This document shows, piece by piece, positions 37,126-40,100 of a stretch of 64,000 bases of DNA. Each line of letters starts with the position of its first letter. Position 1 is the stretch's first letter. The position numbers were made by a program. This DNA is from Escherichia coli. GTDB lineage: Bacteria; Pseudomonadota; Gammaproteobacteria; Enterobacterales; Enterobacteriaceae. The stretch is taken from assembly GCF_029227855.1 (NCBI RefSeq), contig NZ_CP074357.1; one strand, 5' to 3'.

Positions 37126-40100
37126 TTAGGTAAAGTAACTTTTATCACTTCTAATAAAATGAAGGAGAATATCGGATGTATTTAGCAGTGGGCTTGGCTT
37201 ATGATTAAAGTTTTTCTCCGAACTTAATAAACAACTTTAAAAGACAGGCTATTACAATGCCTTTAGCCCCGAAAGGGGCATAAACTATTTTCAAATCCAG
37301 GCACAGTCTTTTTGTTGTGCCAATATTAATAATTACTCGCGAACAAAGGTCCACACACTCGCAGGAACTTTGTCATATAACTTTTTCATTGTCAGTTCGG
37401 CTTTACGATGATCATAAGCACCAGAAATTTCAAGAGAGGCGACACCCGAGTTTTTTTCACATAACCTTTCAAATACTTTTTCGAGCGTTTCGAACGAACT
37501 ACACTTACGGAATTTCATTAAATAAGACTGCTTTGTGTCAGACATAATCAACCTTCTTTAGACAGGCCTCAACTGGCCAGGGATAATCTTAATATCATTT
37601 TTCACTTAAGCCTAACGATTTCACAACCTTTTTCGTTGTTTCCACCCTGTTCATAACCAGGTACATGAGTGCTAAAATGACCTGTAATTAAAACCAGTGT
37701 ATCCCGGTGAGCAGGATGAAGAATCAATCAGTGATCAGACAGTTTTCGGAAAGCGAATTGCATCAGCAGCTGGAAACGTTCGGCAACCATGATAAACAGC
37801 TTTCACGCTTGATCCGTTACTTTTCCCATCTGAGATACAACACTGCTAAAACCTATCTGCACTGGCTACGAGTATGGAACGAATGGTATCTGGCGAATGC
37901 CCGGTTGCATACAGACTGGCCAGTAAGTTCGCTCCCCGTGTCTGAGGACGCTCTGCTTGCGTTTATGGGGCATCTTGAAGGCAAATTGTCACGAAGCAGC
38001 ATAAACAGCTGTCTTCAGGCCTTAAATAGTATCCATAAAAAAGGGCTTAACCTGCCCGGGATTATTACGTCTGAAGCATGGTACATGCTGGAAGCCTTAA
38101 AACAATCGGAAGCCCGGAAGCGAAAGACGACTAAACAGGCAACTCCCTTTCTTATTGGCGATCTCAAGGCTCTGATAAAGTTACGCAGTACTACAAACTC
38201 AGTTCGTAAACTTCGTGACCTGTGCCTGATCTGGACAGGCTTTGAAACACTGCTCCGTTCATCCGAAATTCGACGTATACGTCTGAAAGATCTGTCTCTG
38301 GATAGTATGACCGGTGAATTTAACCTGACGGTATACCGTACAAAAACGAACATTAGTACACTTCTTACCTACCGGCTGACACGTCAGTTAACTAACTGCC
38401 TCTTGAGATTGATGAACCTCGTGAAAATGGATCAGCACAGTCATCCGGATGAATTCCTTTTCCAGGCCGTAAATTTCCATGATACAGGCTATATGCCACC
38501 CGGCTGGAAGCTTCGGAGTAAGGGGAATGAGCTATCTGAACTTCTTAAAAGGCATAACCTACCCTATCGTGCTAAGCAAAGTCTTCTGAACGATGAAGAT
38601 GAAGAAGACACTGTGGACGATGCCGGTATGCTCAGCAAAAATTCCCTTTTACGAGCATTTAAAGAGATGTGGAATGAGCTTTATCCAAATGAGACTAAAA
38701 CTCGTTACTGGACAGGGCACAGCGTTCGTGTAGGCGGAGCGATACAGCTAAATATTGAAGGTTACTCGCTACCACAGATTATGGAAATGGGGAACTGGTC
38801 GAATGAAGAAATGGTTATGCGCTACATTCGTAATATTGAAGCTGGTAAAAAAGCAATGATCAAGCTTATGCGAAATGCCTTTGATGAATAGCGCCCTCAC
38901 GGGCGCATAACTTTATTTTTTCTTGAACGGGTTAAGTCTGGTGAGATTAGAGAGTGCCCCTCCCGGAGGCAAAATTCCCGTTCTTTTATATTTGTACACG
39001 CCATTTAATTTCATTGTCTGGATTCCAAGATTAATAAGCGTGACAAGTTTAAGGGTATACAGAAGTGTAAATTGTGGAGCAACCTGAATAAAAACCAATA
39101 ACAAGCCTGCACACATTACACGTAGCCATGCCGCGTACTCCATGCTCAGCGGACGCTTGAAATAGAATCTTTCGAGCAAATCAACTGTCTTATTACTGAT
39201 CCACGCCGCCGCCACGGAGAGTAACAACACGATGCACACCATAATGCCCAGTTCCATTTTCACTCCCTTCTCTTTTAGTCTCTTTAAGTTGAGGCTTAGC
39301 CACAGTAGTTTTGTTTTTTGCTTTTTTCTTAGGTTTGGTATGATGAAACAGAAAACAATCCACCATTACCCAACCATTTTTATATCGAGCCACCAGCATC
39401 TTCTGGCTGGGGTAATGAGCATGAAACAGCATTTTCACGTCCATGGTGCCCATCAACGACTGTTTGCGCTTTAGCTCATCCTCAGCCATCTGAAATTCTT
39501 GTAAGAATTCTGAAGACAGACGCTGACGCAGGATTCTTATGGCACTGGAGTTTTCATCATTCTTTGCCAGATGCCCGAAGCGTACTAGTGCCTTGTGGGT
39601 TATCTGGATGGGTCCCAGATGAGAGCTGAGCTGTTCGTACTGCCAGAAGTAGGTCAAATCCACCTTAACCCAGCTGATGCTGTCCAGCAGAGCCTCGTTC
39701 ATGATGGTTCCGGACATTGGTACCATTGTCAGCCTGGCCAGACGCATATGTATGTAGTCCGTAAGCAACCTCAGCGACTCAGGAACGTTTTTATTGAGCA
39801 GGAGATGCTGAAGCACCGGGGTTGCGGTCTGCCAACACAGATTGCGCCCGTCAGGCAGGAAAGCAAACTTTTGATCGTCAGGCGCAGAGTTCGAAGCGTT
39901 TTCCTTACGAAGCAAAAAATAATGGCCGCACAGCAGCTCTGCTCTTACCTGGTCCTCGTCAGGGTCATGTCGGGCTTTACTTAGATCAACGGTAAGCACA
40001 ACGCGGTTAATCGCATCAGCGTGATATTTTTTTACCCAGACACAGACACGATAGAGACGCTCATCGATTTTCTGGCTGGCTGTGGAAATCCATTGCATTG

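Follow-up and report, generated by a model that had tools for sequence, protein, structure and literature searches.

By sequence (E about 2e-23) as well as by fold, the closest solved relative of the tyrosine recombinase encoded by IncH plasmids is Cre of P1, which likewise belongs to a low-copy extrachromosomal replicon. In P1 (NC_005856, L026), loxP lies about 420 nt upstream of cre, and the regulatory region of cre has a curated LexA site at 46-65, which lies between loxP and the cre promoters and overlaps the divergent P2coi promoter, not a promoter of cre. The Cre-type tyrosine site-specific recombinases that serve as tools, i.e., Vika/vox, VCre, Dre/rox, Nigri, Panto and YR1-YR12 (PMC10250229), fall into the same subfamily as the IncH enzyme by their similarity to Cre and by their catalytic residues; they are borne on plasmids or phages, as it is, and were found through a palindrome of the 13-15/8 format no more than 1 kb from the gene. 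The integron integrases IntI1 and IntIA are also tyrosine recombinases on mobile DNA with a LexA box over the promoter; LexA control of intI1 is established (PMC3108266), and conjugative entry induces both the SOS response and the integron integrase (PMC2958807). An alternative route of plasmid multimer resolution is provided by XerCD acting at cer, psi or dif-like sites. In this study, a stretch of 64,000 nucleotides from an Escherichia coli plasmid (contig NZ_CP074357.1), called the window below and numbered from its first letter, was analysed around the IncH recombinase gene, which is the orthologue of R0183 of plasmid R27. The gene is intact and encodes an enzyme of the Cre type, and the presence of a conserved predicted LexA-type operator in its promoter is well supported computationally, so that the recombinase is probably switched on by DNA damage. 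The main features are as follows.

37716..38891, plus strand: gene of the Cre-type tyrosine recombinase, orthologue of R27 R0183 (open reading frame, PGAP call, PF00589)
37650..37678, plus strand: predicted sigma-70 promoter of the recombinase (consensus scan, 9/12 matches, with TG)
37680..37699, no strand assigned: predicted LexA operator (SOS box) ACCTGTAATTAAAACCAGTG, with CTG at 37682-37684 and CAG at 37695-37697
37629..37715, plus strand: conserved upstream block of 87 nt that holds the promoter, the operator and the ribosome-binding region

The IncH recombinase shares with P1 Cre all six catalytic residues, among them the Cre-type Trp, at an identity of about 23-26%, and it carries about 50 extra residues between the equivalents of Cre 244-280. 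The predicted LexA box of the IncH gene abuts the recombinase's own predicted -10 element, unlike the P1 site, whose left half ACCTGTAA is common to the IncHI2 box, and no lox-format site was found within 10 kb of the gene. The survey of Cre-type enzymes in 2023 would not have paired the IncH recombinase with a site, because a 13-15/8 palindrome was required within 1 kb (PMC10250229), and the IncH locus has none. The box of intI1 scores 15.2 bits on the matrix described below, as against 12.2-22.2 bits for the IncH boxes; IntI, however, belongs to a different branch of the superfamily (Foldseek about 1e-8, versus 3e-18 for Cre), and the IncH gene has no adjacent attI/attC cassette array. XerC and XerD are encoded on the chromosome, whereas the IncH recombinase is borne on the plasmid. 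The gene and its resemblance to Cre are already known, R0183 having been annotated in 2000 as Cre-like, with 43% identity to 56 residues of P1 Cre (PMC4853401, supplement). What is new is the predicted link to LexA, the deep synteny, the insertion shared by the family and the lack of an adjacent site.

The recombinase

A preliminary description of this DNA had recognised at 37707-38891 a recombinase of the phage-integrase family with 394 amino acids. The open reading frame is present on the plus strand and the family assignment holds, as the Pfam model Phage_integrase (PF00589) matched residues 161-376 with E = 1.8e-13 and 51 bits against a cut-off of 27.1. The length needs a correction: the frame is open from GTG 37707 and gives 394 amino acids when read from there, but ATG 37716, 9 nt further on, is the more likely start and gives 391 amino acids, because it is the RefSeq/PGAP call (WP_000795947.1) and agrees in alignment with the N-termini of the orthologues (MKNQS...). 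That description had missed that the enzyme is specifically of the Cre type and that a conserved predicted LexA operator lies at its promoter. All 17 matches in a sequence search of the PDB were P1 Cre or its engineered derivative Tre, and the match to Cre falls in two stretches on either side of an insertion in the recombinase. A family alignment of 21 members was used for an AlphaFold2 model, which had a mean predicted local distance difference test score of 75.6, with both core domains confident. The top 33 Foldseek matches of this model in the PDB were all Cre or Tre (E down to 3e-18, TM 0.61-0.68), followed by the integron integrase, ten orders of magnitude weaker, and then by XerH and XerA; the XerC model gave only 17 bits against a cut-off of 335.

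The catalytic residues R181, K210, H335, R338, W361 and Y370 were invariant in family alignments of 11 and 21 sequences, and they correspond to R173, K201, H289, R292, W315 and Y324 of Cre. The phmmer alignment to the Cre chains of the PDB yields the same residue equivalences. The insertion relative to Cre is kept in the family (…YMPxxWxLRSxGxxIxxLL … DxGxLSKNTLLRAF…), and its centre at residues 264-304 is acidic, modelled with low confidence and predicted to be flexible. Sub-lineages of IncHI2 differ within this acidic part by an in-frame indel of 6 nt at 38605-38615 (codons ~297-300), which yields recombinases of 391 (WP_000795947.1) or 393 (WP_000795946.1) amino acids. The ratio of nonsynonymous to synonymous substitution rates (dN/dS) was 0.13-0.14 in pairs with unsaturated dS and lower in more distant pairs, and purifying selection of this kind argues for a working enzyme and not a relic. 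We regard it as settled that the recombinase is intact, of the Cre type and, as judged from its residues, catalytically competent.

Predicted promoter and LexA operator

The predicted promoter is composed of a -35 element TTCATA (37650-37655), a spacer of 17 nt and an extended -10 element TGcTAAAAT with TG at 37670-37671 and the hexamer at 37673-37678, of which the pattern TGCTAnnAT is kept in most lineages. Upstream of the gene, the only non-coding DNA that aligns between IncHI2 and IncHI1A/HI1B is the final 87 nt before the start. The LexA box begins 2 nt past the -10 hexamer of this promoter, which was called separately as a consensus prediction, and the box is therefore expected to cover the transcription start. 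The LexA dimer binds sites of the format CTG-N10-CAG (PMC2994835). A symmetrised log-odds matrix was built from 18 documented E. coli boxes (PMC3009722, Table 4), which themselves score 6.4-26.3 bits in a leave-one-out test. The box at 37680..37699 scored 14.5 bits and ranked first among 63,981 positions of the window, in which CTG-N10-CAG with an A/T-rich core occurs only three times. In all lineages examined, an equivalent box was the top match of the whole locus (13-21 kb each; joint-top in L006), with 12.2-22.2 bits and at a distance of 26-44 nt upstream of the recombinase start; in L011 it lies inside an over-extended gene call, and in L004 upstream of a group II intron in the 5' untranslated region. 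The A/T-rich core drifts across 13 lineages while CTG and CAG are kept, save for CTA in place of CTG in Photorhabdus (L006). As controls, the same matrix was applied to complete replicons: its top match on the complete IncHI1A plasmid (24.7 bits) lies just upstream of the plasmid umuD, a box of 15.2 bits was found upstream of both intI1 copies on the complete IncHI2 plasmid, and the curated site of P1 was the top match there with 17.1 bits.

Two independent insertions end just outside the 87-nt block, namely the end of an integrative and conjugative element (ICE) at -86 in L003 and an IS1 at -101 in the IncHI2 plasmid pVet7. In L003 (CP124767.1, 5627-5915), a set of trbJ/L/F/G/I and DUF2274 genes ends 86 nt upstream of the recombinase at TTTTTTGT and displaces hha; presumably this set is the end of a Tn4371-type ICE, and such an ICE-like trb set would explain why the plasmid was typed 'IncP/MOBP'. 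In pVet7 (L018), the IS1 at 47418-48171 separates hha from the recombinase; it lies 101 nt ahead of the start codon, and the promoter/operator block is whole. The intron of L004 (Klebsiella pneumoniae pVIR_3214, 3962-5916; Rfam RF02005, 186.6 bits, with ltrA) lies on the same strand, and its point of insertion coincides exactly with the 3' edge of the box; the junction is …CTGGTTATAAAAACAGT/GTGCGCC…, and the box was left whole. Because of this strand and position, the intron and the recombinase would share one predicted SOS-controlled promoter.

Other matches to the matrix were also seen. The second-best one of the window (2486-2505, 11.6 bits) stands 15 nt before an open reading frame for an aminoglycoside phosphotransferase (2520-3335, PF01636) and is probably due to chance. 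Plasmid pT16R-1 (L013) carries two identical strong matches (GACTGTATGTAAACACAGTA, 21.2 bits) at 54813 and 63805, and the copy at 54813 is located about 20 nt upstream of the transposase gene of ISVsa3 (IS91-like), which hints at SOS control of this element.

Distribution and genomic surroundings

The recombinase was found by tblastn in 2,754 plasmids, and 2,723 of these matches span at least 80% of the protein. The matches fall into about 1,127 IncHI2 plasmids with at least 95% identity, 289 IncHI1A/HI1B plasmids with 63-67% and about 1,337 Klebsiella plasmids with about 37%. The lineages compared were IncHI2, IncHI1A, IncHI1B, the Klebsiella IncHI1B/FIB virulence plasmid, another MOBH plasmid, Photorhabdus, Rahnella, Citrobacter and several metagenomic contigs. 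The same gene order was found in 12 of the 13 lineages with usable flanks, at identities from 100% down to 36%: (a CoiA-like gene,) hha on the minus strand, the recombinase gene on the plus strand, then two small open reading frames, a tus-like gene and a long string of genes, all on the minus strand. The gene upstream is hha in most lineages, and the exception to the order is a relative of 47% identity with phage-like surroundings. In the two complete plasmids (IncHI1A and IncHI2), the recombinase is the sole annotated site-specific recombinase outside transposons and integrons. It is settled, in our view, that the recombinase gene is ancestral to the backbone of IncH-type (MOBH, MPF_F) plasmids, has been inherited vertically and was not brought by a mobile element; the nearby insertions (IS100, IS1, the ICE end and the group II intron) are separate events.

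The window itself belongs to an R478-type IncHI2 plasmid, because 3.8 kb around the recombinase gene match at 100% many of the roughly 1,000 plasmids that carry the whole stretch, and the plasmid taken as reference was typed as IncHI2A, MOBH, MPF_F; the plasmid location assumed in the preliminary description is thus correct. The tellurite-resistance (ter) region lies to the left of the recombinase, and the conjugative backbone (trh genes) extends to the right up to trhI. The GC content is about 0.50 at 35-37 kb but only 0.40 at 37-38 kb, and from there to 64 kb it ranges from 0.34 to 0.47. The neighbouring features are listed below.

34534..36489, minus strand: IS100 (IS21 family, istA/istB; istB/istA annotated at 34602-36403), in a backbone CoiA-like gene
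37333..37545 (or 37551), minus strand: hha (Hha/YmoA family; PF05321, E = 9e-19, and annotation), the divergent constant neighbour
38891..38906, no strand assigned: GC-rich hairpin GCGCCC-TCAC-GGGCGC between the convergent recombinase gene and minus-strand gene string
38913-39257 and 39193-40098, minus strand: two overlapping small or medium open reading frames (annotation) between the recombinase and the tus-like gene, neither with a Pfam match
40108..41070, minus strand: gene of a Tus-like (replication terminus site-binding) protein (PF05472 Ter, 4.6e-19; conserved synteny)

The adjacency to hha is as first described, and the drop in GC content at about 37 kb is also real. The AT-rich block on its right, however, is IncH plasmid backbone and not cargo, and the GC edge beside hha is only apparent and partly an artefact, sharpened by an insertion sequence (IS) in a backbone gene. 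This IS100 cuts the CoiA-like gene (33931-37002) into a C-terminal part (33931-34563) and an N-terminal part (36430-36972/37002). The halves at 34009-34533 and 36490-36973 adjoin without a gap in IncHI1 plasmids (L002 and L010, including IncHI1A), so that the backbone reaches left to about 33.9 kb, and in the IncHI2 plasmid pVet7 the gene is whole and free of the IS. The hairpin at 38891..38906 has a stem that is kept and a loop that varies (TCAC, CTGC, ATGC, TTCC) over IncHI2, HI1A, HI1B and Photorhabdus, and it is probably a bidirectional terminator. The Tus-like protein is a distant relative of Tus, its NCBIfam matches being far under the cut-off, and Ter sites of the E. coli type showed no enrichment (19 observed, 26.8 expected). 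No Rfam family was matched anywhere in the window.

Search for a recombination site

Scans for inverted repeats of 36.9-39.4 kb and of the whole window revealed no repeat of the lox or att type near the gene, in agreement with the preliminary description, which had seen no att-like repeat there. Nothing conserved of the lox type was found in the flanks of 9 lineages (600 nt upstream, 400 nt downstream), no conserved family of inverted repeats was found within +/-10 kb of the recombinase, and the relative in a phage context (L023) likewise had no adjacent lox-type site. The literature search returned no report of a resolution site in IncHI plasmids.

Several palindromes were considered and rejected. 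The region of the -35 element and spacer looks palindromic by eye (CCTG-TTCATAAs-CAGG), but it is symmetric only in IncHI1B (9-8-9) and not in HI2, HI1A or Photorhabdus, and is better read as part of the promoter. A 13-8-13 palindrome downstream of the gene in L004 is missing from L005, in which the enzyme is 88% identical, and is probably a terminator. The break of homology at -86 in L003 was considered as a recombination junction, but there the trb set abuts the T-rich TTTTTTGT, and the break is not the work of the recombinase. The sequence at 46087-46120 of the window (13-8-13, two mismatches) lies inside an open reading frame. The GC-rich palindromes at 46744-46785, 47754 and 44660 have stems that covary between lineages and sequences that differ from one another, and they are therefore hairpins and not a shared binding site. 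Nested GC-rich palindromes occupy the short gaps between tandem genes for proteins of about 300 amino acids without a Pfam match (at 44660, 46744-46785, 47754-47790 and 56878-56912; for example GGGATTTCTCCC-ATA-GGGAGAAATCCC-TAT-GGGAGAAA), and their stems are kept while the sequences change between lineages.

A plasmid-wide comparison of the complete IncHI1A and IncHI2 plasmids yielded two backbone candidates. One is a 13-8-13 sequence at 58443-58476 of the window, with 34/34 positions identical between HI1A and HI2. It forms part of a structured conserved element of about 270 nt; covarying arms and a loop of 9 instead of 8 nt were seen in a distant lineage, and the sequence is most likely a hairpin. 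The surrounding block (58296-58600) is unannotated and intergenic, lies between trhI and the head of the minus-strand gene string of about 19.5 kb, and is found in 1,395 plasmids. Its identity between IncHI2 and IncHI1 is 85-88%, as compared to 64-70% for the neighbouring coding DNA. About six stem-loops with variable loops or compensatory stem changes were recognised in it, without an Rfam family, and it folds better on the minus strand (-35 versus -20 kcal/mol). A structured leader RNA is one possible reading of the block, a single-strand DNA element another.

The other candidate is located outside the window and is a perfect 12-8-12 element, CTATGGGATTTA-N8-TAAATCCCATAG, present in a single copy and in 1,413 plasmids (pVet7 106926-106957; pT16R-1 79085-79116). 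Its arms are fixed between IncHI1 and IncHI2, the spacer is lineage-specific (ATTAGGAG or ATTCGGGG) and the flanks have diverged. The element lies 35-41 kb from the recombinase gene within a divergent intergenic region, and its orientation with respect to the flanks was the same throughout the six plasmids compared. The geometry is right for a Cre-type site. An operator or a hairpin in such a region would have the same appearance, and the element may be any of the three.

A dif-like site of the format 11-6-11, in which the XerD arm is perfect, is also present on both complete IncHI plasmids, again outside the window; it reads (G/A)GTACATATAA-N6-TTATGTTAAAT, also written GGTACATATAA-N6-TTATGTTAAAT (pVet7, NZ_OR724985.1, 98270-98316; pT16R-1, NZ_CP046717.1, 90745-90772). 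The site is an island of 28 bp with 26/28 positions identical between IncHI2 and IncHI1A and with unalignable flanks, and it was found with IncHI2 flanks in about 640 plasmids. The IncHI2 site directly abuts the strongest LexA-matrix match of pVet7 (TGCTGTACATACATACAGTA, 22.4 bits).

Proposed function and alternative explanations

We propose, at a probability of about 0.55, that the recombinase is an SOS-induced backbone enzyme of the Cre type, which is repressed by LexA and possibly acts as an on-demand resolvase of multimers; LexA binding and repression, multimer resolution and the site of action are what we infer here. The recombinase gene would be its own transcription unit, read from the extended -10 sigma-70 promoter, and in the undamaged cell LexA on the operator just downstream of the -10 element would keep expression low. 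DNA damage, stalled forks or incoming single-stranded DNA would activate RecA, LexA would cleave itself and the recombinase would be made. It may then resolve plasmid multimers or other products of RecA-dependent repair when these arise, by Cre-like strand exchange at a putative plasmid site.

A number of observations weigh against this proposal. The IncHI2 box, at 14.5 bits, stands at the weak end of the real boxes, and one lineage has CTA where the others have CTG. The literature on LexA with IncHI plasmids or R0183 holds no report of LexA binding or induction; this empty search is no proof that LexA control of the recombinase is novel. In R27 microarrays, R0183 reached 1567 AU at 25 C and 3694 AU at 37 C in cells given no SOS inducer (PMC7366339), so that any repression by LexA would be leaky; the roughly 2.4-fold increase at 37 C is a pattern common to hha and transposases (PMC7366339). 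A data set of RNA sequencing exists for S. Typhimurium with the IncHI2 plasmid pHXY0908, grown with and without ciprofloxacin at half the MIC (PRJNA544622; PMC6617520). Deletion of the single open reading frame R0183 did not reduce the stability of R27 in E. coli MG1655 (PMC4853401), in a test of seven 1:10,000 subcultures in unstressed LB that was reported as data not shown; since the culture was unstressed, this outcome fits conditional expression. The search for a target site gave none in 11 lineages, either within 1 kb or within +/-10 kb of the gene, and the characterised Cre-type enzymes all have an adjacent site, though they were ascertained that way (PMC10250229). Finally, with the dif-like site on both complete plasmids, the host XerCD could cover multimer resolution without the recombinase. 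The preliminary description had offered the role of a multimer-resolution enzyme, and this role is possible, but the lack of an adjacent cis site, the stable deletion and the XerCD site limit it. These limits fit a conditional, redundant resolvase or another recombination role timed by SOS.

That the recombinase resolves multimers constitutively at a nearby site, as Cre does at loxP in P1, appears improbable to us. A Cre homologue with a whole active site on a large low-copy plasmid that needs multimer resolution, and whose R27 counterpart is transcribed without an inducer, would suit such a role, but the search of 11 lineages gave no lox-format repeat within 1 kb or +/-10 kb, the palindrome downstream of the gene in L004 is missing from its close relative L005, the R0183 deletion caused no instability and the conserved LexA box points to conditional expression. 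The main rival of the on-demand resolvase is an enzyme of rearrangement triggered by SOS, which would invert, excise or fuse DNA at one or more distant sites upon damage or plasmid entry and thereby affect gene expression or plasmid structure, like the SOS-controlled integron integrases; the 12-8-12 element is one candidate for its site. The LexA box is comparable to the one at intI1, no adjacent site was found, the deletion had no stability phenotype, and a single-copy element of lox geometry has kept its arms between IncHI1 and IncHI2 while the spacer is free and the flanks have diverged, all of which agrees with rearrangement. On the other hand, no polymorphism by inversion or excision was seen and the element has the same orientation in six plasmids, a single copy permits only intermolecular or dimer reactions, and the element could equally be a repressor operator or a hairpin; we hold this alternative to be unlikely, if less so than constitutive resolution. 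Only slightly less doubtful than the latter is the more specific idea of a Cre-type recombinase that is silent until SOS and then acts on a non-adjacent site of lox geometry, with CTATGGGATTTA-N8-TAAATCCCATAG as the leading candidate.

The box might also be no working operator, being instead an element of the promoter or 5' untranslated region or the site of another dyad-binding protein, with expression independent of SOS. We give this explanation the same small weight as constitutive resolution. R0183 is readily detected without an inducer and rises at 37 C together with hha and transposases, the IncHI2 score is modest and one lineage has the CTA mismatch. However, many genuine SOS genes show substantial basal expression, the CTG and CAG that LexA requires are kept 10 nt apart in 13 lineages while the core drifts, and the same matrix finds umuD, intI1 and the curated P1 site as top matches in the controls. 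The preliminary description had also suggested that an element brought the AT-rich block and that the gene might be what remains of its integrase; this suggestion is rejected. A protein of the phage-integrase family at a step in GC content had made it attractive, but the position and neighbours on both sides are fixed in the IncH lineages down to 36% identity, the gene is whole and under purifying selection, the low-GC DNA on the right is the conjugative backbone with the trh genes, and IS100 exaggerates the step. Neither flanking att-type repeats nor a tRNA-type target were found. The SOS-induced enzyme of the Cre type with a possible function in multimer resolution is thus the explanation that we prefer.

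Implications

IncH plasmids rank among the foremost carriers of resistance to antibiotics, and those of Klebsiella also of genes for hypervirulence; they are vectors of mcr-1, mcr-9, multidrug-resistant typhoid and Klebsiella hypervirulence. The recombinase is a universal and strongly conserved gene of their backbone, which has been without an assigned function since R27 was sequenced. If the proposal is true, the LexA operator would tie this recombinase to the SOS response, which is triggered by fluoroquinolones, other antibiotics and conjugative entry, and this link would explain why its deletion gave no phenotype under unstressed conditions. At least one large natural clade escapes screens for Cre-type tools that call for a palindrome no more than 1 kb from the gene. 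Under the more specific idea of a recombinase silent until SOS and acting on a non-adjacent site of lox geometry, the IncH plasmids would carry a recombination switch triggered by damage or entry and a natural, orthogonal pair of the Cre/lox kind, which has been overlooked by screens based on the proximity of the site.

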